Shown here one piece after another: positions 19,579 to 51,328 of a stretch of 64,000 nucleotides of DNA. Source of the DNA: an uncultured bacterium (GTDB taxonomy: Bacteria > DAOPZR01); assembly GCA_964637655.1 (NCBI GenBank), contig CAZWUZ010000001.1:599-64598 (forward strand). The letters run 5' to 3'. The notes below the pieces were generated by a model. That model saw nothing but the letters and a program-made list of their open reading frames with translations, was not told the DNA's origin and did no database searches. Position 1 is the stretch's first letter, and each line of letters begins with the position of its first letter. The translations under genes and the position numbers were made by a program.

Positions 19579-19579
19579 C

Positions 19580-28716: not shown

Positions 28717-31463
28717 TGCATTCCAGACGTACTGGTCAACGCCCCGGACAACGCGCCAATTTCTTCGTCCGTCGCGCCGCCCCAGAACTCCGGGAAGCGC
28801 GCGCGCGCTGTCTGCCAGGCATTGCGGGCAGCGACGTGGTCGCCGCGGCGGGCGTGCAGCAGCCCGATGGCAACCTGCGCCGTGTGGTTGCCCGGATCGA
28901 GACGCAGCACCTCGTCGAATTTCGCCATCGCCTCATCCGTGCGCCCGAGCGCTGCCAATGCCCATGCATAGTGATACAGGTCGATATCGTTGTAATCATA
29001 GCGCAGCAACTGCTCGAGCACCGGCAGCGCCTCGGCCGGACGCCGCACCTGGTAGAGCAGCGTGCGGGCAAGCCCGCGCAATTTGCCGCGATTGCCCGGA
29101 TCGTAGCGGAGCGACAGGCGGTTCCGCTCCAGCGCGCGCTCATAATCACCGAGACGGTCGTACCGGTCGACTTCCTCGCCGTAGCCCTCCACCTGTAGCA
29201 GCGCGTCCGACGCCCCGCGCAGCCCCCGGAACAACGTCACCTGCCGCAGCGCCTCCTGCAGTTCCGCCTCGCGCCTGAGATCGCGCAGCGACACGGACAG
29301 CTGCTGCCAGACGAAACTGTTCTCCGGCACTATCTGCAGCGCCTGGCGGTATGCTTCCACCGCTTCGGTATACCGGCTGCGGGCGGCATAACTCTGCCCC
29401 TGCTTGAGGTACGCCTGCCAGCAGCGCGGATCGAGTTCGAGTGCCCGCGCGTACTCGCGCATGGCGCGCCCGTGGTTGCGCTTGTCCGTACGGTAGAAAT
29501 CGCCCAGCATCAGGTGGGGGTAGGGCGAGGTCGTCGTCTCCGCGAGGCACTCCTCCGCCAGCGCCTTCCCCTCCTCGTTGCGGTACTCGGTATAGAGCCG
29601 GCAGAGCCGCAGTTTCGCCGCCAGCGACCGGTGGCTGTCGATGGCCGCCTGCAGGTATTCCTTGCCGGTGAAGTCGTCCTCGCGCGCGAAGCAGGCCTCC
29701 GCCCGCGCCAGCAGTTCCGCCTCCGGCAGCGACGCCAGCGATTGTGCCCGCTCCCGCTCGATGCGCTGCACGGTCGCCTCGCCGAGCACGGGTACCAGCA
29801 GTGCCGCCAGGTCATTGACGCTGTCACTGATGGGCGAATAGTAGCGGCTCCCCGCCGCGGCCACCCGTCCGTCAGCCGCTACCGCGAGAAATACCGGGTC
29901 CATGTCGCATGGCGCGTAGAACCGCCCGGCGGCAAAGTGCGGCGCCTGCCAGCCCGTGAAATCGGAAAGCAGCGGGTAGGGGAGCGGATGCTTCGCGAGG
30001 AACGCGTCGGTAATGCGCCGTTCCACCTCCGGGGCGAGCACCACGATGCGCAGGCCGGTCGCCGCGTAGCGCTCCTGCAGCGCCGCAAAGGCGGCAAGAT
30101 AGAGTCGGTCCCACGGTATCCAGGTGGCCAGCACGGCCACCAGCGCCGGGCGGCCGCGCAGGTCGGCAGACGTATGAAGTATGCCGGTGCGCACCTCGGG
30201 CGCACTGAACGGCACCATCGGCCTGCCAACCAGGGCCTGCCCCTTCCAGCCCGACGGCTGGTGCAGGTTGTACCCGTCCTGCCCGCGGTGCAGGCGCGCG
30301 TCAGGCGGAAGCGGCAGCGCCAGTGCCTCCGCGGTCAGCGGCAGGTCGGTGCGTTCCCCGCTGATATGTTCGCAGGCGAGATGGCTGCGGGTATAGCCCG
30401 GCTCGTCAAGCCGGCGGACGGTGAACGAACGGAGGCGCGGCTGCTCCGCGTCGAGCACCACCTCGTACTCGCCGTCGCCGCAGCCGAAGTAGGCGCCGGT
30501 GAACGTGTAGGTGACGCTGTCATGACGGCGCACGATCTTCCGCACATCGCGGTCAAAGACCCGGCACTGGTCCTCGCTGATCTTCCCGGTGAGCAGGCCG
30601 AGGAGCAAACTCGGGCCGTAGGTGCTCCCCTCGATATCGCGCGGTGGCAGAACCGCGTACTCGCGCAGCACCGGCTGCCAGACCACGGTCTGCGTGTCGG
30701 TGTACCTGACGCTGACCGCATCGGCATAGAGCAGCGGCACAAGACGCGTGATGCCGTCGGCATGCAGCACCCGGTAGTACTGCCGGCATTCACGCCCGAA
30801 GATCCGCGACTGCCCGTGGAGTATTCCGTAGTACGGGCTGCGCTGCCGGTAGGCACCACAAACCGCAGCAAGCCGGTCGAGCAGTTTCTGCCGTTCTGCG
30901 TCTTCCGTCACGCTGATACCCTGCTGCAGCGCGCGCCATTCCTGCGTCGATCGCGCCGCCAGCGCCACGGCCAGCAACCCGGCACACATGAGCACGGTGA
31001 GCACGCGCGCCATACGCGGCGGCAGTTGCCAGTGCTGCTCTTCTTCAGGCGGTGCGCTCTCTTCCGGTGCCTCGTCATAGCGGCGCGCCAGCTCCTCCGG
31101 CGTGCCCAACGCGGCCAGCACCGCCTGCACCGCGGCAGCCGTGCGGGCGGCTGGTGCCGCCACCGCGCTTTCCGCCGCCAGCGCCGCGCGCTGCGCGCGC
31201 ACCGCCGCCAGGTCAGTCACCTTGGCCGCCGCATCGGCCTGCGCCGCCGACTGCGCCGCCCGCGCCGCCGAGGTTGCGGCATGCGCCGCCGCCGAGGCCG
31301 CCAGCACCTCGCCCGTCGGCACCCCGTCTTCCGCGAGCCGCGTCAGGATATGGTCCTCGAGTTCGAGAACGAGGTCGTTCTTCTCGTTCTCCGACATCCC
31401 GCGCAGTTGCGCGCGGAACGCCGCGAGGTACCCGGTGATTATTTCGCTATGCCTGTCTGGCAT
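28713..31463 (-). CDS. second PadR-associated membrane sensor (DUF1700/HAAS-like, TM, degenerate redoxin-like, TPR); paralog of 22164..24872
   Basis: 916 aa. Same architecture and about 80 % N-terminal identity to the first copy. The redoxin-like segment LVAVLATWIPWDRLYL also lacks cysteines. Confidence 0.65.
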   Translation of the reverse strand: MPDRHSEIITGYLAAFRAQLRGMSENEKNDLVLELEDHILTRLAEDGVPTGEVLAASAAAHAATSAARAAQSAAQADAAAKVTDLAAVRAQRAALAAESAVAAPAARTAAAVQAVLAALGTPEELARRYDEAPEESAPPEEEQHWQLPPRMARVLTVLMCAGLLAVALAARSTQEWRALQQGISVTEDAERQKLLDRLAAVCGAYRQRSPYYGILHGQSRIFGRECRQYYRVLHADGITRLVPLLYADAVSVRYTDTQTVVWQPVLREYAVLPPRDIEGSTYGPSLLLGLLTGKISEDQCRVFDRDVRKIVRRHDSVTYTFTGAYFGCGDGEYEVVLDAEQPRLRSFTVRRLDEPGYTRSHLACEHISGERTDLPLTAEALALPLPPDARLHRGQDGYNLHQPSGWKGQALVGRPMVPFSAPEVRTGILHTSADLRGRPALVAVLATWIPWDRLYLAAFAALQERYAATGLRIVVLAPEVERRITDAFLAKHPLPYPLLSDFTGWQAPHFAAGRFYAPCDMDPVFLAVAADGRVAAAGSRYYSPISDSVNDLAALLVPVLGEATVQRIERERAQSLASLPEAELLARAEACFAREDDFTGKEYLQAAIDSHRSLAAKLRLCRLYTEYRNEEGKALAEECLAETTTSPYPHLMLGDFYRTDKRNHGRAMREYARALELDPRCWQAYLKQGQSYAARSRYTEAVEAYRQALQIVPENSFVWQQLSVSLRDLRREAELQEALRQVTLFRGLRGASDALLQVEGYGEEVDRYDRLGDYERALERNRLSLRYDPGNRGKLRGLARTLLYQVRRPAEALPVLEQLLRYDYNDIDLYHYAWALAALGRTDEAMAKFDEVLRLDPGNHTAQVAIGLLHARRGDHVAARNAWQTARARFPEFWGGATDEEIGALSGALTSTSGMQ

Positions 31464-33456: not shown

Positions 33457-34314
33457 TTACGCCTTGCGCGTCTGCTTGATACGGCCGGAATCCGACTTGA
33501 ACGGTCCCTCACCGGGACGGTACAGGCAGATCTCCGGGATCAGCGCCTGCAAATGTTCGTGCCACGCTTCACGGAAGTCGGCGTTGATCTCAACCAGATG
33601 TTTGAGAATGGCATCGGCGAAATGCTGGCGTATCGCTTCGTCTGGCTTCTCACTGATCGCAAAGTGGAAACACGGCCGCACCGTCCCGTCCGGTGATTCC
33701 GCCAGGGACTGGCAGAATGAGACGGTCAGCCGCGCCGTCTCCGGGTCGGCGTAGACGCAGTGTTCCAGATCCTCAGGATAGATATTGGCGCCCATGACAC
33801 TGATCGTAAAATCCCTCCGCCCGTAGATCCATAGGAACGGCAGGCGCAGCACCGGGTGGCCCGCCGCCAATGCGGATAGGGCATGCCCGGCCGCAGCCAG
33901 CCGGGCCTCGATTTCATCGTAGCGGGCAATCCCCCCTTCATCGTGCACGTTGTAACGGATCCGGGGGGACAACAACGAGGCACGCGTAATCGTAAACACG
34001 ACTTCCCGATTGTCGTTGGCCTCGATATGATGCATCCGGGGGTTGTACTGAAAGAGCATTGGGAGGCGCGAATCGTCGCCGAACAGGCTGGTGCGCACAA
34101 CTTCGTTATCGCGAGCCAGACGCCGGAGTGCGACCGCAAGCGGCGTCTCGCCCGCAATGCCGATTTCCAGGTCGGATGCCCCGTCCCCGCGGTAGACACT
34201 GCGGTAGCCGCCGAGAAGGTAGTCGCGCAGCCCTTCCGACATTCCCTCCCCGCCAGCCAACGCATCCAGCCGGTATTCGTGCCAAGGGAACCCCTGCTCT
34301 CGCGCCGCGTCCAT
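33457..34314 (-). CDS. adenylate-forming enzyme C-terminal region (GH3/PaaK-like); N-terminal core apparently missing
   Basis: RYNVHDEGGIARYDEI...LPFLWIYGRRDFTISVMGANIYPEDLEHCVY resembles GH3/phenylacetate-CoA-ligase C-terminal motifs. No P-loop region found. An 88-aa ORF lies in another frame upstream (34347..34613). Confidence 0.35.
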   Translation of the reverse strand: MDAAREQGFPWHEYRLDALAGGEGMSEGLRDYLLGGYRSVYRGDGASDLEIGIAGETPLAVALRRLARDNEVVRTSLFGDDSRLPMLFQYNPRMHHIEANDNREVVFTITRASLLSPRIRYNVHDEGGIARYDEIEARLAAAGHALSALAAGHPVLRLPFLWIYGRRDFTISVMGANIYPEDLEHCVYADPETARLTVSFCQSLAESPDGTVRPCFHFAISEKPDEAIRQHFADAILKHLVEINADFREAWHEHLQALIPEICLYRPGEGPFKSDSGRIKQTRKA

Positions 34315-34710
34315 TATGTGCTTGAGGAAAGGGGGATACCTGACTATCAGATAGCGATACCGTGGGCCGAAAAAGACAAGCGTGTTGAGAATTTTGGGGA
34401 GGTCCGGGCCGGTATTCTTGACAATGCTGTTCTTCTGCAGGGGCGGCGGGCGCGGGTCCTGCTTGCCCAGTCAAGATAGCGCGGCGGCAGCCGCTGGAAC
34501 CCCCAGAGAAACGTGCGATAGGTTTTGCAGACCAGATAGAGCAGCAGGTCACGGGGACCAAGCAGGATGAATTGCAGACGGTCTTTCATACCGGGTATGA
34601 TCCCCATATTCACTTACTCCGTTCAACAATAAGCGCCCCGGGATTCTGTTGTTTGCGCCCGTAGCGGCGCGAGGATGCGATTGAATTCCCTGTGCACTCC
34701 GGCATGCCCC

Positions 34711-35793
34711 TCATGCCTTGCGCCCCCCGACAAACTCGCTGTCATGCGCATGCAGCATGGCAGTATCGTAGGTGATTTCGCCCTTTTCGTATAATTCCTT
34801 CAGCGCATGATCGAGCGTCCACATGCCATGCCGACGCCCGGAAATAATGTCATTGACGATATTGTGGGTGGCCCCTTCGCGGATCTGCTTGCGGATAGCA
34901 GGGGTGTTGACCAGCACCTCAGTGGCCAGCACCAACCCGCTGCCATCCGCACGCGGCAGCAGCGTCTGGCAGATGATCAGGCTGAGCACCGACGCCAGCT
35001 GCGCCTGCACGGCGGGCTGCTGATGCGCGGGGTAGCTCGCGACGATACGTTCGAGCGCTGCCACGGTGTCATTGGTATGCAGCGTGCCAATGACGAGATG
35101 TCCGGTTTCCGCGGCGATGAGCGCGGTGCTGATGGTCTCCAGGTCGCGCATCTCACCGATCCCGATGATATCGGGGTCCTGGCGGAGGATATGCCGCAGG
35201 GCCGCGGAAAACGACGGGGTGTCCGACCCCACTTCCTGATGGATCACCAGCGAACGGATATGCGCATGCACATACTCGATGGGGTCCTCGACGAGAATGA
35301 TTTTACAGCGCTGCTCCTGGTTGATGCGATGCACGCAGGCGTTCAGCGTTGTAGTCTTTCCCGCACCCGTCTGCCCGGCGATGAGAATGAGCCCGTCGGG
35401 TTTCATGATGGCTTCTTCCAGCACCGCGGGCAGGCCCAGTTCGGCAAAACTGCGCATCAGCGGCGGGATGATACGGATGGCGGCACCGCGGATGCCACGT
35501 TCAAGGTAGGCGGTGACGCGGAAGCGGCCAAGTTCGGGCAGGTCGACGGTGATGCCCAGCGCGCCCTCACTGGCCAGGCGCTGCGCGCGCTGCTCACCCA
35601 CCAGCTCACCCACCAGGGCATTGCAGTCCTCCTCCGGTAATGCGTCGCAGTCAGTGAGAATCAGTTCGCCATTGATGCGCAGGACGGGTGCCAGTCCGCA
35701 GACCAGATGGATGTCAGACGCCTTCGCCGCCACCGCGCGCGCAAGAATATCGTGTACCGAGCTCATACAACCCTCCGGCGCGACCATGGCCAA
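34711..35793 (-). CDS. pilT: type IV pilus retraction ATPase PilT (start may be the Met at 35763)
   Basis: Walker A GQTGAGKTTT, Asp box DPDIIGIGEMRD, His box LVIGTLHTNDT, PilT-type AIRKQIREG. Confidence 0.85.
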   Translation of the reverse strand: MAMVAPEGCMSSVHDILARAVAAKASDIHLVCGLAPVLRINGELILTDCDALPEEDCNALVGELVGEQRAQRLASEGALGITVDLPELGRFRVTAYLERGIRGAAIRIIPPLMRSFAELGLPAVLEEAIMKPDGLILIAGQTGAGKTTTLNACVHRINQEQRCKIILVEDPIEYVHAHIRSLVIHQEVGSDTPSFSAALRHILRQDPDIIGIGEMRDLETISTALIAAETGHLVIGTLHTNDTVAALERIVASYPAHQQPAVQAQLASVLSLIICQTLLPRADGSGLVLATEVLVNTPAIRKQIREGATHNIVNDIISGRRHGMWTLDHALKELYEKGEITYDTAMLHAHDSEFVGGRKA

Positions 35794-36692
35794 ACGATAC
35801 GCGCAACCCGGCCGTCAACCGCGGTGATGGGTACGCTCAGTATCGTGCGCGTGGTGCGCAAGTTATTTTCCTGCCCGCCGCTGCCTACCCAGGCCAACAC
35901 CAGCATGCGGTCGCCGGGCACCGGCAGCCGCCCGGTAATTTCCCGCACCTGCGCGTCCGTAACCAGGAGCGGCGCCGCCGCCGGCAGCCGGTAGGGCGCC
36001 AGAGCCGCAACCACAGCAGCAGCATCGGCCGACCCGGGAGACGCCACTACCCTCCCGAAAGTCTGCCCGTAAAACACCAGATGTCCGCGCTCCAGTTCCA
36101 ATGATCTGCCCGGACTGAACATAACCAGCGCCCCGATCGGGCAATCGCCACCCGCGAGCATAACCCGGTCGTCAATTTTGATCAGCGGGGCGGGCAGCAG
36201 GTTGCGCATGGCATAGCGCACCTCATACACCGGCGCGCTGATATAGTTCCACCCGACCGCATACAGTGTCAGCAACATGGCGGCAACCACTGCATGTGTC
36301 AGGCGCGCGCTGCCGGGTGGAAACAGCACCCGGCGTGCTGCAACAAGATGCACCAGTATCGCGCCCGTCATGAACACAAATTCCAGAGGCGTCCCGCACA
36401 GCCACCAGCCGCATAATGCCAACAGCAACCAGACGGCAAAGAGGCGCACGGCGCGACCACGCTGTCCCGCCCGCCATGGCACGCTCCCCGGCAGCACAAT
36501 GGCCATAAGCAGGTCCCAATCGGGCGACCAATACGGCACCGCGGGCACCTGACTGCGGCAACGCTGCCACCAGCGGCGCAACCACGGAACTCCACCCTTC
36601 CGGCGCGGCGGCAGAAATTCGTCCGGACGCGGTGCGTTGCTCATGCCGAGAGCAGGACTATGCCTATTGCCGGCGCGTGGTGACGCCGGCAT
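35763..36692 (-). CDS. membrane protein (309 aa)
   Basis: Three or four TM helices then a soluble domain. Immediately upstream of pilT. Confidence 0.4.
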   Translation of the reverse strand: MPASPRAGNRHSPALGMSNAPRPDEFLPPRRKGGVPWLRRWWQRCRSQVPAVPYWSPDWDLLMAIVLPGSVPWRAGQRGRAVRLFAVWLLLALCGWWLCGTPLEFVFMTGAILVHLVAARRVLFPPGSARLTHAVVAAMLLTLYAVGWNYISAPVYEVRYAMRNLLPAPLIKIDDRVMLAGGDCPIGALVMFSPGRSLELERGHLVFYGQTFGRVVASPGSADAAAVVAALAPYRLPAAAPLLVTDAQVREITGRLPVPGDRMLVLAWVGSGGQENNLRTTRTILSVPITAVDGRVARIVWPWSRRRVV

Positions 36693-36867
36693 CGGTGGAT
36701 ACCGGCTGATAGTATTCCGGCTTTTTGTCCTCGCTGGTCACGACACCCAGCACCGCCTGCAGCGGTTCAACCAGCTTGCGGCAGGCGCTGCCCTTTGCCC
36801 CGACAACGTCGACCACAACCGAACCGTCGGGCTTGATAGTCACCATCAGCTCCTCGCGTTGCGCCAT
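36664..36867 (-). CDS. DUF2997-like small protein (67 aa)
   Basis: EELMVTIKPDGSVVVDVVGAKGSACRKLVEPLQAVLGVVTSED fits the DUF2997 pattern. Confidence 0.55.
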   Translation of the reverse strand: MAQREELMVTIKPDGSVVVDVVGAKGSACRKLVEPLQAVLGVVTSEDKKPEYYQPVSTDAGVTTRRQ

Positions 36868-37634
36868 CCCAGCACCTCCCTAAGCCAGTCGAATAGCGAC
36901 CGTGCAGGCGCGTCCAGGCTCTGCAGGGCGTCGTGCGCCCGGTCGTTCTGCGGATCGAGACGGAGCGCACGCCGGAACGCCGCCGCCGCGCCGCGCCGGT
37001 CGCCGGTCGCTGCACGCGCCTCGCCCTCGCATACCAGAAGGTACGGGCTGTCGGCGGCCAGCGTCGCGGCGCGCGCAAAATGCAGCAGCGCCTTCTCCGG
37101 GTTGCCCGCTGTCCGGTAGAGCAGGCCAAGATCGCACAACGCCTCATGCGGCGGGAGGCCGGCCTCGAGATACTTGACCAGCGCATAGTCGGCGTTGGAC
37201 GATTTGCCGAGCAGCAGCGCGTAGCCGCGTGCCAGCCAGGCGAGCGGCGGCGGCTCCGTACCTGCCAGCGCGCCGTCGGCAAACTCGCGCGCCTCGGGTA
37301 CGCGCCCGGCACGAGCCAGCGCCAGCGAACGGGCAGCCAGCAGGACCGGGTTCTCTGGCACCGCCAACAGGGCCTTGTCCGACCACAGCAGCGCCTCTTC
37401 CGCCTCGTTTTCCAGGAAGAGGATCCACAATTGCCCGGCCCAAGCCTCGACCCTGGACCGGTCCTGGGCCAGCGCCCGCGCATACAATTTCAGCGCTCCG
37501 GTGAAATCGCCCCGATACAATTGCCCGCGCGCCTGGCGCAGGTAATGATCAGCGTCAAACAGCACAGTTTCGACAGGCGAAGAGACAGTCGGTTCCTTGC
37601 CTGCATCAAGTTCCAGCCAGTTGAAGCGGCCCAC
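36846..37634 (-). CDS. TPR-repeat protein (262 aa)
   Basis: Repeated TPR-like helix pairs. Abuts the DUF1257 gene. Confidence 0.55.
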   Translation of the reverse strand: MGRFNWLELDAGKEPTVSSPVETVLFDADHYLRQARGQLYRGDFTGALKLYARALAQDRSRVEAWAGQLWILFLENEAEEALLWSDKALLAVPENPVLLAARSLALARAGRVPEAREFADGALAGTEPPPLAWLARGYALLLGKSSNADYALVKYLEAGLPPHEALCDLGLLYRTAGNPEKALLHFARAATLAADSPYLLVCEGEARAATGDRRGAAAAFRRALRLDPQNDRAHDALQSLDAPARSLFDWLREVLGWRNARS

Positions 37635-38084
37635 TTACGACCAGCGCCGCAAGGTCAGGCGGATAGTGCCGTCCGCCGCCTTTTCCTCATTGACCGTGCC
37701 GTAGCCCTTGTTGCCCATTTCCGCGGTAATGCGCTGGTAGGCATACTGCTGCACGATGCGGCCAACCATCTCGCGGCCCAGCGCCTCGAGTTCGCGCGCC
37801 GACTTGCCCTTACCATCGATGCGCAATGACAGGTTGCCGCGCCCGTCGCGCCGCAGCGCCACAGTCATATCGCCATTGACGAAGGTTTTACTCTCGCCGC
37901 GGCCGACCGCAGCCGCCAGCTCGGCATTCTTCTCAAGCGCCACTTCAACGCATGTCGTTTCAGCCAGTGGCGCACTTTCCGTCTCGCGATAGCCGTATTC
38001 ACTGAGTGCAGCCGCCGCCGCCGCGGCAACCAGCGGCCAGGCCGCACTGATGAGAATCGGGGTGATGGCAATGATGACGCTCAT
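37635..38084 (-). CDS. DUF1257 (Ycf35-like) protein (ORF to 38162)
   Basis: [38 protein letters not shown] overlap with the AAA+ gene stop. Confidence 0.5.
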   Translation of the reverse strand: MSVIIAITPILISAAWPLVAAAAAAALSEYGYRETESAPLAETTCVEVALEKNAELAAAVGRGESKTFVNGDMTVALRRDGRGNLSLRIDGKGKSARELEALGREMVGRIVQQYAYQRITAEMGNKGYGTVNEEKAADGTIRLTLRRWS

Positions 38085-39637
38085 AATTCCAGCCTCCGTC
38101 CACCCGCGCCGGCGGTCTGGGTCTCTCCGGTCGAGGCCGGACGCGCCCGGCCGGACGCCCATTGCCGGATGCCGTTGATGTCCTCGGCCATGGTCTTCGA
38201 CAGCGGCACCGTCTTGTGCAGCGCAGCAAGCAGCGCTTCGGTGTGCAGGTCGGTATTCTGGTCGTATACGTCATACAGCGCCGCGACAATGGCCTGTTCT
38301 ATTTCCGAACCGGAATAGCCTTCTGCCGCCGCGGCAAGGCGGGCGAGGTCGAATCTTCCCGGGTCCCGCCGACGTTTCGCGAGATGAATGGCGAAAATAT
38401 CCTGCCGCTCCGCACTGCCCGGCAGGTCGATGAAGAAAATTTCATCGAGCCGGCCCTTGCGCAACAGCTCGGGCGGCAGGGTGGTGACACTGTTCGCGGT
38501 CGCCACCACAAAGACCGGCGCGCTTTTTTCCTGCAACCAGGTGAGGAACGCACCCAGGACGCGCGCCGTGGTGCCGGCATCAGAAAACGACGACGATTGC
38601 GATCCGGCGAATGCCTTTTCAATTTCGTCCACCCACAACACCGCCGGCGCCACCGATTCTGCCACCGCGATAGCACGGCGAATATTAAGTTCCGTAGAAC
38701 CAACCAGCGACGAGAACATCTTGCCCATATCCCAGCGCAGCAGCGGCATCTGCCAATAGCCGGCAATGGCCTTGGCGCACAGCGACTTGCCGCAGCCCTG
38801 CACGCCCAGCAGCAGGATGCCGCGCGGGGCGGGCAGCCCGAATTCTCGCGCCTGCGCTGAATGTGCGGCCGTGCGCTTGCCCAGCCAGTGTTTCAACTCG
38901 TCGAGGCCACCCACCCCGTCGATACCGGCATCAGGGCACACGTATTCGAGCAGGCCCGATTTACGGATTACCTGTTCCTTTTCTGCGATGATCAGCCCGA
39001 CGCTGTCCGCGCCCAGGCGATGGTCGCGCACCAGCGTCTTGGCGAAGACATTCTCCGCCTCCTTGAGTGACAGGCCGAGCGCGGCATTAACCAGTTTTTC
39101 ACGGGCGGCGGCATCGAGTGACACCGTCACCTCGCCGCTCCCGCCCACTTCCGCGATGATGCGGTCGAGCAGTGCGGCCAGTTCTTCCGCGCGCGGCAGC
39201 CCGAATTCGACAATGGTGATGTCCTTGTCAAGCTCGCAGGGGATTTCCAGAACCGGTGAGACCAGCACCAGTGATTTGTACGAGGCTTTGAGGTGCGCCG
39301 CCGTCTCGCGCAATTTGCGCACGATACCCGGGTCGCGCAGGTAAGGATGGAAATCGAGGAACGCGAAGATGGCCGGTTCCTTGTGGTCAAGCACCGCGTC
39401 GAGTGCTGCCAGCGGATCGCGGGTATTCCCGCTGCCGCCGCGCGCTTGCACCGGGGCGTCCGCGGCAACGATGCCGCGGGTCACCGACCACAGAAGACAT
39501 TTCTTGCCGCGCGCCGACGCAATGCGCTGCAGCAAGGCAATAACCCGCTCCTCCTCCCACGACACCGCGTAGATAATGGGGTAGCGCGCCCGTAGCAGGA
39601 TGTCGAGTTCGCGCTCGATGTCGCCGATCGTGTTCAT
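38081..39637 (-). CDS. AAA+ ATPase, Ycf46-like
   Basis: N-terminus [15 protein letters not shown]; Walker [13 protein letters not shown]; Walker [12 protein letters not shown]. 518 aa. Confidence 0.75.
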
Positions 39638-40632
39638 CGCCTCGCCTCCGCCATGGGCTTGAGTATAGCAAATTCCGCCGCCGCCGACATCATCTCACCG
39701 CTAATGATCGGACAGACAATGCTGCCGTCGGCCCCGATCTGCAGCATGAGTTCGCCGCTCCTCCATGGCGGCGGGTTGGCCGCTGGCGGCTGCAATAGCG
39801 GCGGTTCCTCGCGCATGGCGACGCCCGGCAGCCCCGCGAACAGGGCACGCGCCGGACTGCCGCAGCAGTCTTCATGACCCGGCATGATAAGCAGACAGGC
39901 GATAACCGGCGCCTGCCCGGCCATCCAGCGCACATTCGTCATGAGCGTGGTCAGATAGTCGGGTGCGCCCGCGTGACGCAAGGCGCAATTGTCATTCCCG
40001 AACTTCACTGAGACCACGTAAGCATCCACCAGTCCCGTCAGCAGCGTCCGTGCGGCAGCATGCTCTTGCCCTTCGGTGTTCCAGACCAGCGGCAGCGTCG
40101 TCGGGACGGCGGCGAGGTAGGCAAGCGCGGCGGCCAGATTTACGGTCGGCGAGCCGCCAAGCAGGCCGATGCTGCGGGCGCCCGCAGCCGCAGCGGCAGC
40201 CGTGCGTCTGTTCAAGTCAACGGCGTCGCATAGGTCGCCACGCTCAGGGACGAGCACATGGTCGCGAGCCCAGCAGATTGCACAACGCAAACCACAACCG
40301 GTAAAAAACAGAGAGAATTGCGGAGCATAGGGCTCCTCGACCGCGTAGTTGAGCCCGGCATAAAACTGGCGTGCCACCGCGCCGGTGGCGCATCTGCCGC
40401 TTTCGCCTGTCAGCCGGTTGCAACCGCAGGCATGGCGGCACAACGTGCAGGCGGCGAGTTGCTGTTCCGCCGCGTCGGCGCGGCGGGCTAGTTCTCCGGG
40501 GGCGTCAGGCAGCGCGCTGCGCCGGGTCGGCACAGCAATGGCGGGCGGCATCCGGTCAGGCTCGCTGCAGGAGATACTGCCAGGCTTCGAGGTATTGTTC
40601 AATCGACGCATATCCTTTGCCGCAAGCCGCAC
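39634..40632 (-). CDS. radical SAM enzyme, PflX/activating-enzyme-like
   Basis: CTLCRHACGCNRLTGESGRCATG followed by GCGLRCAIC (CxxxCxxC). ATGA overlap with the AAA+ start. Confidence 0.6.
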   Translation of the reverse strand: MRLAAKDMRRLNNTSKPGSISCSEPDRMPPAIAVPTRRSALPDAPGELARRADAAEQQLAACTLCRHACGCNRLTGESGRCATGAVARQFYAGLNYAVEEPYAPQFSLFFTGCGLRCAICWARDHVLVPERGDLCDAVDLNRRTAAAAAAGARSIGLLGGSPTVNLAAALAYLAAVPTTLPLVWNTEGQEHAAARTLLTGLVDAYVVSVKFGNDNCALRHAGAPDYLTTLMTNVRWMAGQAPVIACLLIMPGHEDCCGSPARALFAGLPGVAMREEPPLLQPPAANPPPWRSGELMLQIGADGSIVCPIISGEMMSAAAEFAILKPMAEARR

Positions 40633-40794
40633 AGCCGGCGTATATCGGGATTGTCTTCTCGGTCTGCGATTTTCACCAGACCTTCTTTCCGCACTTTAGG
40701 AACGCGATATCACGCCAAGGATCCGACACGCAGCACCGCCAACACCGCGCACAGCGCATAGCGCTGATACGTTCTGCACCAGGACGAGCGCATC

Positions 40795-40863
40795 TTATTC
40801 CCTGTTCTCCTTCACGCGCACGATGTTCCGCTGTATCTGCGCCATCCAGTCATTCAGTTCCAT
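40795..40863 (-). pseudogene. PadR gene remnant (22-aa N-terminal fragment MELNDWMAQIQRNIVRVKENRE)
   Basis: About 30 nt including the RBS GGAGGCAATAATGGAACTGAATGACTGGATGGCGCAGAT match the two intact padR starts. The reading frame ends after 22 codons. Confidence 0.55.
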
Positions 40864-41398
40864 TATTGCCTCCACCCTGCCGGGGCTGTGCCCCTGTTGT
40901 CGTTCCGTGCTCCCCATTCCCGGCCGCCGGCATTGGCGACGTCGCGGGAGTATCATTTTCGCTGTAATAGAGCGTGAAAGCGAGCGCCGGGTCCACACCG
41001 AGCCGCCGGCGCTCACGGGTAAACTGCGCCTGGGTGAACGGCCCGTGCACCCTTTCGTCTGCCACGTTCACGAGGTTGTATTCCGTCACCGCATAGTTGA
41101 TATTGCTGCCGCCGTCCGACGGATGACGTTTGGCGATGACCCAGGTACTATCGCATCCGGCAGCATATATCGTGCTGCTGACGAGTATCCCCACCATGTT
41201 TTCACTCTCACGGCGGCCAATCGAGAGTTGGCGAACATCATCGGCGGCGCTCAGTTCGAGCCTGCCCGCCAGCGGGTAATCACTCGCCGGAAAGCCGCCG
41301 CAGGCGGTCAGCAACGCCAGTGCACACAGCGCCAGCAGCATAACTGCGACCGCTTCCGCCATCCGTTCACGCGCCATCTGTGCCATCTTCACCGCCAT
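40850..41398 (-). CDS. lipoprotein (likely start MAVKMAQ...LLTACGG)
   Basis: Lipobox ALLTACGG; beta-rich body; Gly/Asn/Thr-rich C-terminus. Confidence 0.5.
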   Translation of the reverse strand: MAVKMAQMARERMAEAVAVMLLALCALALLTACGGFPASDYPLAGRLELSAADDVRQLSIGRRESENMVGILVSSTIYAAGCDSTWVIAKRHPSDGGSNINYAVTEYNLVNVADERVHGPFTQAQFTRERRRLGVDPALAFTLYYSENDTPATSPMPAAGNGEHGTTTGAQPRQGGGNNGTE

Positions 41399-41436
41399 AT
41401 CCGCGCTGGATGCATGCCTCACGCCTCTACCGCACA

Positions 41437-41465
41437 TGTATACTATGTGTCGCTATGTATGTCAA
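41437..41465 (-). promoter_or_regulatory. sigma70-like promoter TTGACA-N17-TATACA with conserved core TTGACATACATAG
   Basis: Third copy of the 13-bp core, immediately upstream of the lipoprotein gene. Confidence 0.45.
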
Positions 41466-41526
41466 TCGGCGATGTTTGCCGCGGAACAGTCAGCCCCCGC
41501 AGGCACATACTATCGGCCGCTGCCGT

Positions 41527-43068
41527 TCAGCGGGTCAGGTAGGAGCGGGCGAGGTCGTTGGCCGGGTCGAGTTCGCGTGCGGTCCGGAATGCCGCCATGG
41601 CCTTCTGCCGCTGTCCCATGTGATAGAGACAGACCCCGTACCAGGCAAAGGCCTCAGCATCATGCGGCGTCACGCGCGTGAGCCGGGCGAACATCGCGGC
41701 TGCCCGATCAAGTTCGTCGGTCTGGTAATAGCAGGCGGCGAGATTGAACAGCGCCACCGCATGCTCCGGTTCGCGCTGCAAGGCCTCTTCGTAGGCGCGT
41801 GCAGCCAGACGCGACTGCCCGGCCTGGAAAAACGCATAGGCGGAACGCAGCAGTTCCACGGTCGGCGTCGCTGGCGGGGGTGCGGTTGCCGGTACCGGCG
41901 ATTCCGCCATTTTCGTATCCGCTGCCGGCGGCGGCAGGGTCAGCATGGTCGTGGTCGGGGCAACCACCGGGGTGAGCGCTTCCCAGGGCGCCGGTGCTGC
42001 TGTCGCTGTCAGCGCCGCATCCGGTGTCGAAGCGTCCGACTTGCCGGCCGCCGGCACAGGTGCAGGCACAGATGCTGCAACCGGAGTCGGCAGCGGCGCT
42101 GTCGCCGGTACCATCACGGCCGGTGTCGCAACCGCGGTTGACGCCGCCGGCCGTGCCTGCCCGAAACAATAGCGCAGCGAGAGGCGATGCGCATCACCCA
42201 GGTCGCCATACGGCACGAAGGCATAATCCACATGGAATTCATCGTCGAGATTGACCCCGAAACCGCAGGTCAGTCCGCTCCCCGCATCGTTCTCGCCCGT
42301 ATAGCCGACCCGCAGCGCCAGCATGCGCACGATCTGCCATTCCATGCCGGCATTGAGGAAGACACGGTCGTCGCGCGGCACCACCAGATCGGTTGTCAGC
42401 AGCAGCGGCAGTTCCGGCAGGCGATAGGCGCCGCCGGCCAGCAGGGTCAGCGGCAGATTTTCACGGCGCGTCCCCGCCTGCAGCCGCGTCCCGAGATTGA
42501 GCAATGACACGCCGAGCGCCAGTCCGGGCACGGCGACGTCTGTCGCCTGCCAGCCGAGATCGACGGCAAACGCGTCGGCCTCGTACGCCGCCAGTTCCTC
42601 GCGGATGTACTTGAGGTTGACGCCCCAGGCGCCGAACTCCTCCTCCCGCCCGTAGCCGACCGTCACTGCGAGATCGCCCGCCTCCGTCCGTCCCAATCCG
42701 GTCACCGGCGCCTGCCCGTTGATCCGCGTGATATCCATGTCGCCGTAATCGAGCATGGTGACTGCCGCGCCGGCACGACCGCCATACACCTGCCCGTCAT
42801 GCACATAGGCCAGGTGGTTGTAGGTAATGTCATCAAACCACGGGGCGTGCACAAAGAGCGCCTCACCCTGCCGCAGCCGGCCCAGGCCCGCAGGATTCCA
42901 GTGCAGCGCGCCGGCATCGCGCGCCAAAGCAGTGTACGCTCCACCCAGTGCCGCGCCACGCGCCCCCGGAGCAATGAGCAGGAACGGTGCGGCGCTGCTT
43001 CCCGCCTCGTCCGCGCGCGCGGGGAGCGCCGCCAGCAGCAGCAGGCCGCAAAGCAGGAGGCGGCGCAT
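41527..43068 (-). CDS. FadL/PorV-family outer-membrane beta-barrel with C-terminal Pro-rich/TPR extension
   Basis: Signal peptide LLLCGLLLLAALPARA. Hatch motif GARGAALGGAYTALARDAGALHWNPAGLG contains NPA. Alternating beta-strand pattern. Starts 1 nt from the stop of the giant CTD protein. Confidence 0.55.
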   Translation of the reverse strand: MRRLLLCGLLLLAALPARADEAGSSAAPFLLIAPGARGAALGGAYTALARDAGALHWNPAGLGRLRQGEALFVHAPWFDDITYNHLAYVHDGQVYGGRAGAAVTMLDYGDMDITRINGQAPVTGLGRTEAGDLAVTVGYGREEEFGAWGVNLKYIREELAAYEADAFAVDLGWQATDVAVPGLALGVSLLNLGTRLQAGTRRENLPLTLLAGGAYRLPELPLLLTTDLVVPRDDRVFLNAGMEWQIVRMLALRVGYTGENDAGSGLTCGFGVNLDDEFHVDYAFVPYGDLGDAHRLSLRYCFGQARPAASTAVATPAVMVPATAPLPTPVAASVPAPVPAAGKSDASTPDAALTATAAPAPWEALTPVVAPTTTMLTLPPPAADTKMAESPVPATAPPPATPTVELLRSAYAFFQAGQSRLAARAYEEALQREPEHAVALFNLAACYYQTDELDRAAAMFARLTRVTPHDAEAFAWYGVCLYHMGQRQKAMAAFRTARELDPANDLARSYLTR

Positions 43069-46000
43069 CAGCGCACCACGATCACTTTCCGCGTCGCGGT
43101 TTCCGACCCGCTGCGCAGGAGGATGATGTAGACGCCGCTCGCGACGTCCTCGCCTGCCGTGTTGCGCACATCCCACTGCACCGCACCGGTCCCCTCAGGC
43201 ACGCTGATCCTGTCGATCAGGCGGCCGCGCACATCGTAGATGTCAACCTGCGTGCCGGGCACCAGGCCGTTGAGATAAATCCCCGACCCGTCCCCGGGAC
43301 TGCCGTACGGTATGCCATTGCCGGGATCGCCGTCGTGAGGCACGTACGGGTTCGGATAGACCACGGCATTGCGCAGGTCGGCTGCCGGCGCAGCGAAGCC
43401 CGCGCCCGGGAAAAGCCCGTAGATCGACAGGTGCGGCAATTGCACGATCAGCGTGCGTGCGTCCCAGTCGAACGTTGTCGTTCCCGCTTCCTGCCACGAG
43501 ACGCTCGTCTCGTCATAGGTATAAAAGCGCAGTTGTTCCGCCTGCGCGCGCGTCAGGCGGCCCGGGGCAAAGGTGTAGGTCAGCGTGAGCGTGCGGAAAC
43601 TCGCGGGCCTGCTCCCCAAATCGCGTCCCGCGCTGTCGCTCACTTCCAGGCCAAACACCGTGCTGAGGTACGCGGCATACTCACGCAGGCCGCGCCGTGT
43701 GAACGAGTCCGGATCGACGCGCCGGATACCGATACGCTGCCCCGTGTCAGCGCCGGCGAGTTCGATCTGCAGGCGCAACGTGTCGCCGTAATCGCCCGCC
43801 AACTGGCTGTAGACCGGGATATCAACCGCCATGCTCCCCCCCGAATCGGTGACCAGCAGAAACGTTGCCGTATCGTCGCGGGTTGTGCGCGCCAGCACGA
43901 CAAGCGTATCGGCAACTACCTGCGGCGCGTCGATGGGCGCGGTTTCGTCCACCGTGCCGTCCCCGGCCAGGTCGGTGGCGACCTGCAGGTCGACAGTCGG
44001 CAGTGCCTGCCAGCCGATCCCCGACAACGTCACCGCCGCTTGCGCCGGGAGCAGCAGCGGGTCGAGCCGCCGCACCACGCTCCCGGCCGGCGTGCTGCGT
44101 TCCAGTTCGAGCGTCAGCGTGTGCGTCTCGCCGGTACTGGCCAGCGCCAGCGCGGACGAATCGCCGAAGCCGACCGCCAGTTCCGACCCCGCCGGCGCGG
44201 CCGGATCGGTCAGACGGAACACCTGTTCCTCGTCGCCAAGCACCTGCCCGATCTGCCAGCGCACAACGCTGACACGTTCCGGGCGGAAGCGACACTCGGT
44301 TTCCGCGAAGACCAGCGTGTCGGCGCCCCCGCTGCTGGTCGCCGACAGCACGATAAACCGGTCCTGCCTGAACACCCGCCAGGTCGCCGGCTGCGTCGCC
44401 TCGAGCCGCGTCGTTCCACTGATACTGAACGGCTGCCGCCCGAAGACCAGCATCCCCGCCAGCACGGTATCGCCAGGTGCTGACGGCACATACAGCGGAA
44501 ACACGCTGTCGGATGCCGTCTGCAGCCGCGAATCGGCGTAGGTGGCCGCCACCTGCCCGTCGAGCAGCAGCGTGAAGGACGCCACATTCGTGAACTGCAC
44601 ATAATCGACGTCGGGCCAGGCATCGAGGTAGGCGGTCGGGATGCGCGGTCGCGTGTCGGCCAGCCGGATGGGCGGCAGGAGCAGCGAACTGCTGCCGCCT
44701 GACAGCGTCCCCCACGGACTGTTGAGGTAACTCCACGTGCCGCCGGTCAGATTGAAATTGAAAACCCGCGCCTCGTCGCCCGGCAGGTTGTTCTCGTAGA
44801 CATAAACGAGGTAGTTTTCCGCCGCGGTATCCGCCGCGCGACAGACCTTGTACGGCACCACGGAATGGTTGACCCCGCTGAAGAACTCGAGTTCCGGATA
44901 GGCACTGCTGTCCGTGCCGCTCAGCGCCGCGCACAAACGCGTGAAGGTCGTGCGCAGCGGCGGCGGCGACGCCCAGTGCGCATAGCGGTAGGCGACGAAT
45001 TCGCTCGTCCCGTACTGGAAGAGATGGAATGCGTTGATGAGGTTGAGCGACGCGGTGGTGCGGCCCGCCGCCCCGGTGAATGCTGCGCCTCCCGGCACGG
45101 GCGTATCGCCGTTGAACAGGCGCAGCGCGCTCAGCGAGAAGCCGAAACACGAGCCGGCAAAACTGTGCGGCAGCGCGCCATAGAACGCATCGGCGGACGG
45201 CCGGTGCCGCCCGTCCGGATATTCCACCTGGTCGGCACCGAACGCCATGCGGTAAACCGTCCAGTCGACCACGCCGCCGCTGTAGTTGGCGAATGCCCAG
45301 CCGTCAACGGGAGGCGTGAATCCGTGCGCATACGCAGTTGTTACCATCTCCGCGGAAACACCCACATTGTTGCCCGGGACCGAGTCCGCCGCCGTCAACA
45401 CCGCCAGTATGCGATAGGGAACGCCAAAAGCCCAGGTGTGCGGCACGCTGACCGTTGCGCTCAGGGCAACCTCGCCTTCCGCCGCCACTGCCAGCACCGG
45501 CTGCATGACGGTCGTAATCACCGTATCACCGGCATCCGGCTGCGTGTCAGCAGAGAGCGAGAAGGTGACTGTCACCGGTCCAGTGAACGGCTGGCTGCCG
45601 ACATTGCGGAGCGTCGCGGTAAACGTCGCGTCCATGCCGAAGGCCAGCAGTGCGGGTGTTGCCGTCACTGCTGCCACGATCAGGTCTGTGCGCGCGTAGC
45701 CATCGTAGCGGTTGTAACCGTTGACACAGAGCGTTTCGCTCAGCCACGACTCGTTTTCCCAGACGCGCCCGTCAGCACTGTGCGTGTCGAACGCTGTCAC
45801 CCGGTAATAGTACGTCGTCAGCCGGTTGATCCCGGTATCCACATAGGTCGTGCCATCGGTCGTCAGCACCTGATGCTGGTGCCAGCCGGTATCGTCGCTG
45901 ATGCCCGTGCGGTACACCCGGTAGGTGGCACGACTGAACGTCCCGCCCGCCTCTTCGTCCGTGGTGACTGCCGCCCAGGAAATAGTGCAACTCGAGTCAG

Positions 46001-51326: not shown

Positions 51327-51328
51327 CA

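Follow-up and report, generated by a model that had tools for sequence, protein, structure and literature searches.

The window analysed here is a 64,000-nucleotide stretch of DNA from an uncultured bacterium, and its minus strand carries, between 34711 and 40632, seven tightly packed genes in the order radical SAM, Ycf46-type AAA+ ATPase, DUF1257, TPR, DUF2997, membrane protein X and PilT. The original prediction had described the first five as an operon. Those five are real, with their families, their order and the two ATGA overlaps linking the first three genes all correctly called, and they form the core of a longer unit that also includes X and PilT. The features are as follows:

39634..40632, minus strand: radical SAM protein, PflX-like (PFL-activase-like), by Fer4_12, Radical_SAM and AAA-linked subtype scores
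40390..40449, minus strand: N-terminal cysteine motif of the radical SAM protein, C62-x2-C65-x-H67-x-C69 ... G79-x-C81, read from the sequence
40273..40296, minus strand: radical SAM cluster motif C113-x3-C117-x2-C120 (GCGLRCAIC), read from the sequence
39655..39756, minus strand: radical SAM C-terminal tail (GELMLQIGADGSIVCPIISGEMMSAAAEFAILKP), with the position and residue pattern of a micro-protein of related loci
38081..39637, minus strand: Ycf46-type AAA+ ATPase, 518 aa (PF00004, 92.9 bits)
37635..38084, minus strand: DUF1257 (Ycf35-family) protein, 149 aa (PF06868, 27.1 bits, cutoff 22.2)
36846..37634, minus strand: dedicated TPR protein, 262 aa (matches to Pfam TPR families)
36664..36867, minus strand: DUF2997 protein, 67 aa (PF11211, 53.7 bits, cutoff 24.1)
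35763..36644, minus strand: membrane protein X, 293 aa (family profile and hydropathy)
34711..35766, minus strand: PilT-family ATPase (TIGR01420, 393 bits, cutoff 319; T2SSE, 154 bits)

Read from the sequence, the radical SAM/AAA+ and AAA+/DUF1257 junctions are ATGA overlaps (39634-39637 and 38081-38084), and DUF1257 and TPR meet at TAAGTG with zero gap. TPR and DUF2997 overlap by 22 nt (TGATG with an alternative start), a gap of 19 nt leads to X, and a third ATGA (35763-35766) contains both the X stop codon and the PilT start at 35766, the longest PilT reading frame starting at 35793. Given these junctions, and with no terminator signals above chance within the operon, the cluster is a single unit. 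This raises the question as to whether the genes work together, or whether inherited synteny has kept side by side two or three neighbours that share no function (a stress module of Ycf46, DUF1257 and DUF2997, a housekeeping radical SAM gene, and X, TPR and PilT as an ordinary type IV pilus retraction set). We consider the latter unlikely. The TPR gene sits between DUF1257 and DUF2997 with overlapping or abutting frames, both in the window and in a read-archive contig (L172), so that the two halves of the cluster are interleaved, and the supposed boundary is flanked on both sides by ATGA overlaps; both features argue against independence.

The radical SAM protein matches Pfam Fer4_12 (26.1 bits, cutoff 22) and falls just under the cutoff of Radical_SAM (25.8 bits, cutoff 29.5), a model to which its orthologues score 40-48 bits; no curated NCBIfam model describes it, the sole match being MoaA at 16 bits. 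Its longest reading frame starts at 40632, and the more likely true start is Met28 at 40551, giving a 305-aa protein that is also the product in a public record. The CxxxCxxC motif is invariant across the AAA-linked subtype described below, and the cysteines of the N-terminal motif are invariant in 13 linked orthologues. The latter motif is possibly a second metal or Fe-S site and, judging from its presence in distant intein-bearing PflX-like proteins, is a family-wide rather than a system-specific feature. With the PflX group (COG1313, to which the AmmeMemoRadiSam system enzyme belongs) the protein shares the Fer4_12 match and a CxxxCxxC motif that lies some 85-110 residues into the chain and follows a CxxCxxxC...GxC motif; homologues are named 'putative pyruvate formate lyase activating enzyme' at their source. 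The window protein differs from that group in belonging to a separate subtype that occurs almost only beside a Ycf46-type AAA+ gene, and no glycyl-radical enzyme, AMMECR1 or Memo gene lies near it.

Scores against a profile of the linked subtype fall into two groups, one of 212 bits or more and one of 162 bits or less. The AAA+ gene comes next in 11 of the 12 high-scoring contigs with at least 1.5 kb of downstream sequence, compared to none of 32 generic, low-scoring PflX-like relatives, and is also next in four of the five nearest representatives tested from 50%-identity clusters. The linkage is not absolute, as two loci (L113 and L170) have the subtype without the AAA+ gene. The window copy belongs to the linked subtype, since it scores 136-158 bits to linked PVC copies and no more than 97 bits to unlinked copies. 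This radical SAM gene is dedicated to the AAA+ system and is not a member of a separate operon, a possibility that the original prediction had allowed for; a subtype found essentially only beside this AAA+ gene also speaks against a housekeeping neighbour. The window copy itself has GGS in place of the subtype's GGE and a divergent C-terminus in which the usual C-terminal subdomain is lost; given these changes and the sub-cutoff Radical_SAM score, its activity cannot be assumed.

The AAA+ protein has a Cdc48-like tandem layout, since its N-terminal half (residues 1-235, 38933-39637) is a degenerate AAA+ domain in which Walker A is absent. Residues 236-518 are predicted to form an active classic-clade AAA+ module, closest to the D2 domain of Cdc48/p97 (E 3e-67). 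While this nearest match is shared with the Cdc48/p97/VAT-type tandem unfoldases, the absence of Walker A makes the usual nucleotide binding by the first tier impossible, the double-psi-barrel N-domain is lacking, the pore loop is Leu-Val-Gly instead of aromatic-hydrophobic-Gly, and the cluster encodes no proteasome or peptidase partner. The predicted link to Ycf46 holds, as the protein shares 46-49% identity, along its entire length, with cyanobacterial proteins encoded directly upstream of DUF1257 (Ycf35) genes, the same arrangement as in the window. In contrast to the window, the cyanobacterial loci examined have no radical SAM, micro-protein, TPR, S26-like or PilT gene beside ycf46, and their DUF1257 proteins lack a hydrophobic N-terminus. 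The cyanobacterial/plastid ycf46/ycf35 operon (Synechocystis slr0373-slr0374-slr0376; Synechococcus Synpcc7942_0416-0418) has been characterised just as a multi-stress, dark and stringent-response operon. A cyanobacterial DUF2997-ycf35-fed7 (ferredoxin) gene cluster (PMC4284462) provides a second Fe-S association for the small proteins.

Both small families named in the original prediction are recovered by Pfam above cutoff. The PF06868 match covers just the C-terminal 41 residues of the window DUF1257, which over its whole length scores 128 bits with the family profile and has a generic TBP-like binding fold. Its N-terminal 28 residues are hydrophobic, a feature that within the family is confined to this clade and that, going by hydropathy, is probably a membrane anchor; a structure model in which the N-terminus forms a strand and a helix belonging to the core fold counts against this reading. 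DUF2997 consists of a beta-hairpin, a G-x-K-G-x-x-C loop, a helix and a T-x-E-Y-Y tail. Across 23 sequences Gly15, Gly26 and Cys29 are invariant, and Gly23, Gly41, Thr49 and Tyr53 are at least 90% conserved. Conservation is equal where the radical SAM gene is absent, and neither DUF2997 nor DUF1257 has residues conserved specifically in radical-SAM-linked copies.

In most related lineages with such loci an eighth part, an unannotated micro-protein, is encoded between the radical SAM and AAA+ genes. Its gene immediately follows that of the radical SAM enzyme in 40 loci, with one match per locus, and is found in none of about 130 loci without a linked radical SAM gene. The micro-protein was cross-validated with a profile from 23 independent sequences. 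No separate micro-protein gene was found in the window, where the radical SAM tail is possibly a fused remnant: scored with a profile that excludes the window sequence, it ranks top among 1,309 window ORFs at a level that is not significant (5.9 bits, E 0.83). PFL-activase-like radical SAM enzymes typically act on proteins, and the operon might accordingly serve a RiPP-like or protein-cofactor maturation in which the radical SAM enzyme cross-links the micro-protein or DUF2997, or modifies it in another way; the AAA+ protein would serve as chaperone or unfoldase, X would be the relic of a peptidase and bind the leader, and PilT would drive export. The position of the micro-protein, its faint profile similarity to DUF2997 (hhalign P 1.4e-4) and the invariant Cys and Gly residues of DUF2997 would fit such a scheme. 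We nevertheless judge it improbable, because both small proteins appear to be conserved folded mini-domains and not a leader plus variable core, DUF2997 is just as conserved without the radical SAM gene, SPASM and RiPP-recognition domains are absent from the Pfam matches, a separate micro-protein gene is missing from the window, X lacks catalytic residues, and PilT-family proteins retract pili and do not export peptides.

The TPR protein has a conserved N-terminal motif, M-x-R-F-x-x-L-E, in the alignment, and its orthologues occur in 15 loci, usually immediately before PilT. X has two to three hydrophobic segments and a C-terminal S26 signal-peptidase-like domain, and lacks the N-terminal zinc ribbon found in planctomycete copies. 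The window X has no Pfam match on its own; a profile of the same-position gene from other loci aligns with 251 of its residues (E 7e-11), family members reach 28-30 bits with Peptidase_S26, and the family profile finds SpsB (2e-9) and the LepA and SipA chains of Streptococcus pyogenes (2e-6). The catalytic Lys position is occupied by Asp or another residue and the Ser is not conserved, so the S26-like domain is predicted to be inactive. We take SipA/LepA to be non-catalytic signal-peptidase homologues needed for pilus assembly; like them, X lacks the Ser/Lys dyad and adjoins a pilus-related gene, whereas X is polytopic, often has a cytoplasmic zinc ribbon, and is partnered with a PilT of a Gram-negative type IV system and not with a sortase pilus. 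PilT, which closes the cluster in 14 related genome loci, has Walker A, Asp box, His box and AIRKQIRE. By sequence it is an ordinary PilT and no distinct paralogue (43-54% identity with the PilTs of other clusters, 46% with one in L024 that lies outside a cluster), and could serve ordinary type IV pili as a mere neighbour, a point in favour of independent genes.

These proteins could also form a type IV pilus accessory module, in which, once PilT has driven retraction, the AAA+ unfoldase pulls pilins or a component of the pilus platform out of the membrane or recycles them, X is a pilin-binding pseudo-peptidase and TPR a bridge. A genuine PilT coupled to X by ATGA, the match of the X profile to the presumed pilus proteins LepA and SipA, and the apparent membrane anchoring of both DUF1257 and X are consistent with this model. 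It is quite doubtful all the same: the clusters and their immediate surroundings show no conserved gene for a pilin, PilB, PilC, PilM-Q or a prepilin peptidase, many lineages and a phage have the Ycf46 trio in the absence of pilus genes, and the radical SAM enzyme is left without a role.

Another 18 loci contain all seven families (10 genomes, seven metagenome contigs and the read-archive contig L172, whose gene order is exactly that of the window), indicating that the grouping is more than chance. The complete set is present in 10 of 80 genome loci, the best 80 of at least 600 matches and not a random sample; all 10 are from Planctomycetota or Verrucomicrobiota, and an eleventh locus ends after X. 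The seven-gene set is thus conserved as a unit in Planctomycetota, Verrucomicrobiota and metagenomic lineages, and the pairing of radical SAM and TPR with the trio, which had been called unusual, is real and recurrent. No gene outside the radical SAM-to-PilT interval is conserved across both phyla and the window; a gene of ~200 aa upstream of radical SAM recurs in eight Verrucomicrobia loci only. That the seven genes stay together while their flanks vary argues against independent neighbours, although most named complete clusters come from one superphylum, and shared ancestry inflates the apparent conservation. Sub-modules also occur apart: radical SAM and AAA+ only (L008, L099, L104), AAA+-TPR-PilT (L011, L013) and AAA+-TPR (L005). 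This would fit independent neighbours, yet every reduced form still has the AAA+ gene, which makes the AAA+ protein the probable hub. In Armatimonadota and Chloroflexota many AAA+ homologues (50-58% identity) have no partners within 10 kb. The trio, said in the original prediction to come mainly from cyanobacteria and plastids, is also found in Myxococcota, candidate division KSB1, Omnitrophota, archaeal MAGs and a Rhizobium phage; in cyanobacteria, Myxococcota, archaeal MAGs and the phage it stands apart from radical SAM, TPR and PilT genes, which again favours separable neighbours. We found no description of the seven-gene operon in the searchable literature, and it offers a new handle on the long-unexplained Ycf46/Ycf35 genes.

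The phage occurrences bring up a role in anti-phage defence, or in another conflict system on mobile DNA. The AAA+ module has partial matches to PADLOC IetA models (83 bits) and, far under the cutoff of 510, to NCBIfam IteA (76.8 bits), full-length AAA+ homologues exist in phages (phrog_8638, 1e-142; 57 phage records), and Rhizobium phage L338C has AAA+, DUF1257 and DUF2997. Such a role is very unlikely, given that the defence-model matches are limited to the generic AAA+ domain, the other six proteins have no match to PADLOC models, no integrase or transposase is conserved beside the clusters, the region's GC content (0.62-0.65) falls inside the span seen in the remaining window, and a scan of viral contigs with the AAA+ alignment gave only four loci.

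Based on gene neighbourhood and folds, ATP-dependent modification or remodelling of a protein substrate is the most reasonable reading of the operon. More specifically, we propose, with a probability of roughly 0.5, that the seven genes encode a membrane-associated, ATP-driven protein-remodelling machine with a radical-SAM step. The AAA+ hub, combining a degenerate D1-like ring domain and an active D2 motor, would probably be a hexamer that threads or remodels a protein client, with DUF1257 and DUF2997 as small adaptors or regulated partners, as in the cyanobacterial stress operon. The hydrophobic N-terminus that DUF1257 gained in this clade, together with polytopic X, may place the machine at the inner membrane. 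The radical SAM enzyme would modify or activate a co-encoded protein or the client, the micro-protein and DUF2997 being the first candidates. TPR might be the scaffold that joins the AAA+ unit to PilT, coupling the output to a membrane process driven by PilT, for instance the retraction of pili or a related step involving a fibre or secretion. The benzylsuccinate synthase operon likewise encodes a radical SAM activase (BssD) together with an AAA+ chaperone (BssE), and both are believed to act on the same protein. BssE is of the MoxR/CbbQ type and the bss operon encodes a glycyl-radical enzyme, whereas the window cluster lacks such an enzyme and its AAA+ protein is of the classic clade.

The seven minus-strand genes that run from a radical SAM gene to a pilT gene most likely constitute one conserved functional unit (probability about 0.85). 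The original prediction had named five of them, in the order radical SAM, Ycf46-type AAA+, DUF1257, TPR and DUF2997, and both an ORF listing and a direct reading of the minus strand recover that set and that order, together with the two ATGA overlaps claimed for the radical SAM/AAA+ and AAA+/DUF1257 junctions. The end of the unit, which had been placed at DUF2997, has to be moved downstream, as X (a 293-aa membrane protein) and PilT continue it.

Genes of the operon, in their order on the minus strand
39634-40632, minus strand: radical SAM gene (Fer4_12 26.1 bits, Radical_SAM 25.8 bits)
38081-39637, minus strand: AAA+ gene (PF00004 92.9 bits, Pfam search)
37635-38084, minus strand: DUF1257 gene (PF06868 27.1 bits, cutoff 22.2)
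36846-37634, minus strand: TPR gene (several Pfam TPR families)
36664-36867, minus strand: DUF2997 gene (PF11211 53.7 bits, cutoff 24.1)
35763-36644, minus strand: X gene (profile of same-position genes, E 7e-11)
start overlapped by the stop of X at 35763-35766, minus strand: PilT gene (TIGR01420 393 bits)

By direct reading of the sequence, DUF1257 and TPR meet with zero gap at TAAGTG and the TPR and DUF2997 reading frames share 22 nt; in the window, 19 nt separate DUF2997 from X, and a third ATGA, at 35763-35766, joins the stop of X to the start of PilT. The Pfam check proposed for DUF1257 and DUF2997 recovers both above gathering score (27.1 and 53.7 bits). A promoter consensus scan of 34000-41600 gave nothing above shuffled expectation and a terminator scan of the same interval no excess over it, so that neither scan marks a transcript end. 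Directly downstream of PilT, after a gap of ~400 nt, lies a 285-aa ORF (33457-34314) that matches neither Pfam nor NCBIfam and lacks a counterpart among the related loci.

To place the operon among other genomes, one genome per species was scanned with an alignment of AAA+ homologues as query, and the best 80 of at least 600 matches were kept, a set in which close relatives of the window AAA+ are over-represented because only the highest-scoring matches were retained. Families in the related loci were assigned from six-frame stop-to-stop ORFs, searched with profiles iterated from the window proteins, and not from curated annotations. Ten of these 80 loci (the best of at least 600 matches) carry the complete set of seven families, and an eleventh is truncated after X. 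The order in the ten complete loci is radical SAM, AAA+, DUF1257, DUF2997, X, TPR, PilT, and all eleven belong to Planctomycetota or Verrucomicrobiota (Gimesia, Pirellula, Tepidisphaeraceae, Phycisphaerae, Limisphaerales and others); since the set is top-scoring and one superphylum supplies most of the named clusters, locus counts overstate the number of independent events. The related locus L172 has exactly the gene order of the window, with TPR between DUF1257 and DUF2997, which makes the window arrangement a second recurrent form and not a one-off. The pairing with radical SAM and TPR proteins, predicted to be unusual, thus turns out to recur in Planctomycetota, Verrucomicrobiota and metagenome contigs. 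All-against-all clustering of the related loci yielded no further gene family common to both phyla and the window; a ~200-aa gene upstream of radical SAM is present in 8 loci, from Verrucomicrobia only.

The AAA+ gene is central to the system, being kept in every reduced form: radical SAM plus AAA+ only (L008, L099, L104), AAA+-TPR-PilT (L011, L013) and AAA+-TPR (L005). The view that the AAA+/DUF1257/DUF2997 trio is mainly cyanobacterial has to be given up, as the three genes occur together in Myxococcota, KSB1, Omnitrophota, two archaeal MAGs and a phage; cyanobacterial loci consist of AAA+ then DUF1257 only. In Armatimonadota and Chloroflexota loci the AAA+ gene stands alone within 10 kb, and AAA+ homologues of 50-58% identity without adjacent DUF1257, DUF2997, radical SAM or PilT genes are found in Armatimonadota, Sumerlaeota and Chloroflexota (these include L012, L017, L020, L024-L029, L036 and L043); partners in these phyla may be encoded elsewhere or be dispensable. 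At L024 a PilT gene lies ~7 kb from the AAA+ homologue. A candidate division KSB1 locus (L055:5553-11848) encodes three Ycf46-like AAA+ paralogues, with DUF1257 and DUF2997 between the first and the second. When viral contigs were scanned with the alignment of AAA+ homologues, only 4 loci came up. Rhizobium phage vB_RleS_L338C (L084:3438-6757) carries a full-length Ycf46-like AAA+ gene and, downstream of it in this order, a hypothetical gene, a DUF1257 homologue (1.4e-10) and a DUF2997 homologue (3.5e-10), and the AAA+ gene alone occurs in 34 Mycobacterium phage records.

The radical SAM gene is dedicated to its AAA+ neighbour. Radical SAM proteins encoded beside a Ycf46-type AAA+ gene (the linked subtype) score 136-158 bits against the window protein, whereas the best unlinked PflX-like proteins, taken from a word-indexed search of a 5.8-billion-protein collection, reach at most 97 bits, and their genes lie in unrelated contexts. 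A metagenome scan with an alignment of the linked subtype gave 80 contigs with bimodal profile scores, seven of which carry all seven families. The gene-neighbourhood statistics called for by the original prediction support the pairing: among contigs with at least 1.5 kb of downstream sequence, the AAA+ gene is next in 11 of the 12 with radical SAM profile scores of at least 212 bits and in none of the 32 scoring 162 bits or less. Searched exhaustively, 1.84 billion cluster representatives yielded 57 relatives at E 1e-30 or better; here scores fall smoothly, so that the subtype is delimited less sharply than by the contig scores. The AAA+ gene is next in four of the five closest representatives placed on contigs, L172 among them and L170 being the exception.

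The window radical SAM protein has the cluster motif C113-x3-C117-x2-C120 (by sequence reading), which is invariant in 13 orthologues, and upstream of it C62-x2-C65-x-H67-x-C69 with G79-x-C81. Its Radical_SAM (PF04055) score of 25.8 bits is below the cutoff of 29.5, compared with 40-48 bits for orthologues, and Fer4_12 is found at 26.1 bits (cutoff 22). A 305-aa form in the public record starts at Met28 (coordinate 40551) and carries PF04055 in that collection's precomputed annotation. The SAM-binding motif reads GGSPT in the window and GGEPT in all orthologues but one, and the window protein (39634-40551) has a proline-rich linker and a short tail in place of the usual C-terminal subdomain. 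An invariant N-terminal CxxCxxxC...GxC motif, the radical SAM core and PFL-activase-like homologue names at JGI mark the protein as PflX-like (COG1313), an assignment made by motifs and homologue names. The same N-terminal motif is present in distant intein-bearing PflX-like homologues, and a literature search on PflX returned only unrelated work. A glycyl-radical enzyme activase of the PflA/NrdG type was rejected for want of any PflA or NrdG NCBIfam match, and no glycyl-radical enzyme gene is encoded in the window region or the related loci. A RiPP-type maturase is likewise not supported: SPASM, twitch and RiPP-recognition domains are absent by Pfam from the window copy and its orthologues, and the small proteins encoded nearby are conserved from end to end, which does not agree with a RiPP precursor with a variable core. 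Large radical SAM matches (715-828 aa), at first taken for possible AAA+ fusions, contain intein insertions instead; in the distant PflX-like proteins P0401, P0413 and P0417 a large intein-like insertion directly follows CxxxCxxC, with HNC as its last residues before the radical SAM sequence continues.

Small proteins are easily overlooked by gene callers. In L172-L174 a gene for a micro-protein of 61-73 aa, with the consensus ELLILPDGRILVHNLTPxMAAVLxELNPxD, lies between the radical SAM and AAA+ genes. The micro-protein is specific to loci with the linked subtype: its profile has exactly one match in each of 40 loci, all at the radical SAM/AAA+ junction, and 0 matches in ~130 loci without a linked radical SAM gene.

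Examples of the micro-protein gene at the radical SAM/AAA+ junction (35 further loci carry it)
L002:9604-10014, micro-protein gene
L015:9759-9974, micro-protein gene
L007:3450-3638, micro-protein gene
L095:6651-6839, micro-protein gene
L172:1044-1226, micro-protein gene

For cross-validation, a profile built from only the 23 search-found sequences recovered independent instances of the micro-protein in L002 (1e-20), L015 (4e-6), L021 (1e-5) and L172 (2e-5). The family has no Pfam match. Profile-profile comparison with DUF2997 gave P 1.4e-4 and a probability of 53%, with the hairpin and helix aligned and the GxKGxxC loop not, against P 0.28 for a control comparison with DUF1257; the apparent similarity to DUF2997 is no more than suggestive. 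With the radical SAM gene running into the AAA+ gene, the window leaves no space for a separate micro-protein gene. The C-terminal 40 residues of the window radical SAM protein follow the residue pattern of the micro-protein, but this tail scores a non-significant 5.9 bits (E 0.83) with a micro-protein profile built without the window sequence and is not recovered by a three-sequence profile; it is possible that the tail represents a fused micro-protein. An apparent radical SAM/micro-protein fusion in L171 was dropped as being without independent support, and the idea that the micro-protein forms the N-terminal extension of long AAA+ homologues was rejected, those extensions being Pro/Ala-rich and of low complexity.

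The AAA+ protein belongs to the classic clade, with a PF00004 domain, Walker A and B motifs and a second region of homology; RKGRLD and a further 13-residue motif are invariant in 20 homologues. Its C-terminal module is closest to Cdc48/p97 D2 domains (3e-67). Profile comparison of the N-terminal half with the C-terminal half gave only a 16-residue lid-like match (E 0.06), and the AAA+ nature of the N-terminal half was settled by fold search instead. A Walker A motif is missing from the N-terminal sequence, so that Ycf46-type proteins are tandem AAA+ proteins whose first tier is degenerate. Cyanobacterial proteins (Microcystis, Leptolyngbya, Richelia and others) are 46-49% identical over residues 7 to ~503, and a DUF1257 gene directly follows each compared cyanobacterial AAA+ gene. 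JGI names the homologues 'SpoVK/Ycf46/Vps4 family', and the profile libraries searched contain no curated Ycf46 model. The IetAS/IteA anti-phage system was rejected as an identity for the operon: the NCBIfam IteA score is 76.8 bits against a cutoff of 510, PADLOC IetA matches are confined to the AAA+ domain, and no other operon gene matches any PADLOC model.

While the PF06868 match on the DUF1257 protein covers the C-terminal 41 residues only, the whole protein scores 128 bits with a 29-member family profile, among matches all carrying PF06868, and the alignment is colinear from a conserved N-terminal Met-Ser. The predicted structure is a TBP-like alpha+beta domain (pLDDT 72). The first 28 residues are strongly hydrophobic in all seven-gene clusters (mean hydropathy 2.2), unlike the N-termini of the cyanobacterial and myxobacterial proteins. 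On the DUF2997 protein, PF11211 extends over model positions 3-47 of 47, with Gly15, Gly26 and Cys29 invariant and a conserved T-x-E-Y-Y tail.

X has no Pfam match of its own in the window and is matched over 251 residues by the profile of the same-position gene in other genomes. The family has two or three hydrophobic segments by hydropathy, and an N-terminal zinc ribbon is present in planctomycete copies and absent from the window copy. Its C-terminal domain is homologous to S26 signal peptidase I (PF10502, 28-30 bits), the family profile finding SpsB at 2.3e-9 and LepA and SipA chains at 2e-6. Opposite the catalytic Lys of 'KRVIGxPGD' the family has Asp, Asn, Gly or Ser, and the box B nucleophile position lacks a conserved Ser; with the Ser/Lys dyad missing, X is a pseudo-peptidase and not a peptidase. 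The TPR protein comes from a dedicated family of orthologues, in which the N-terminal motif M-S-R-F-x-N-L-E-F is conserved. PilT exceeds the TIGR01420 cutoff of 319 bits and has the motifs GQTGAGKT, EDPIE, GHLVIGTLHTND and AIRKQIRE by sequence reading. The possibility that the cluster PilT is a dedicated paralogue was rejected, as it is indistinguishable from ordinary PilT proteins.

Of the known systems, the cyanobacterial ycf46/ycf35 stress operon comes closest. Plastids and cyanobacteria share Ycf46 and Ycf35 as conserved reading frames, and the operon is among the strongest stress-induced units of model cyanobacteria; its function was given as 'yet unknown' in a 2020 paper, and a 2025 preprint offers indirect roles only. 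Cyanobacteria also contain a DUF2997-ycf35-ferredoxin (fed7) gene cluster (PMC4284462), which fits a redox or Fe-S theme. Our literature search found no paper joining radical SAM, PilT, AAA and Planctomycetes, and of the three papers that it found to mention DUF2997 and the five that mention DUF1257 none deals with function. As the ycf46/ycf35 operon is the closest system and the combination has no literature match, we rate the seven-gene cluster as an expanded form of a known, uncharacterised system. The expanded cluster offers partners with recognisable chemistry or mechanics (radical SAM, micro-protein, membrane pseudo-peptidase, TPR scaffold and PilT), and it is a marker of a conserved, probably envelope-associated system in two phyla whose cell biology is poorly understood, Planctomycetota and Verrucomicrobiota.

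For the mechanism we have a tentative proposal, which we hold to be doubtful in its specifics, namely a remodelling motor, a radical SAM step and coupling to PilT. A Cdc48-like AAA+ remodelling motor would be tethered to the membrane via DUF1257 and X, with DUF1257 and DUF2997 acting as its adaptors; the radical SAM enzyme would modify or activate a co-encoded protein or client, and the TPR protein would couple the motor to PilT. Our confidence in unit and mechanism taken together lies between that in each alone. Less likely rival readings take the genes for independent neighbours, a pathway that matures a small protein, a pilus accessory or a defence system. A bolder version of the proposal, unlikely to be right, is a membrane-associated machine in which the radical SAM enzyme would modify or activate the putatively DUF2997-like micro-protein or a partner, and the Cdc48-like Ycf46 ring would then use the product to drive a PilT-coupled envelope process. 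If true, this would show what the Ycf46/Ycf35/DUF2997 module, kept in stripped-down form in cyanobacteria and plastids, does biochemically.

Elsewhere in the window, just upstream of the operon, 41527-43176 encodes a fusion of a PorV/PorQ-family outer-membrane barrel with C-terminal TPRs (NF033709, 165 bits). The adjoining gene (43068-49628) encodes a protein of 2,186 aa with a T9SS type A sorting domain at its end (TIGR04183, 35 bits), and by their domains the two look like a type IX secretion shuttle and cargo pair. Paralogous proteins of ~900 aa are encoded at 22164-24872 and 28713-31463, each with an N-terminal HAAS domain, a redoxin/AhpC-like domain and C-terminal TPR repeats. Large ORFs (440-707 aa) in 17015-21142, where three lie back to back, and in 49677-54165 match no Pfam or NCBIfam family. 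Long ORFs are nearly all on the minus strand across 1-64000, and every 2-kb bin shows a negative GC skew, so that the window apparently lies on one replichore, with its genes co-oriented.
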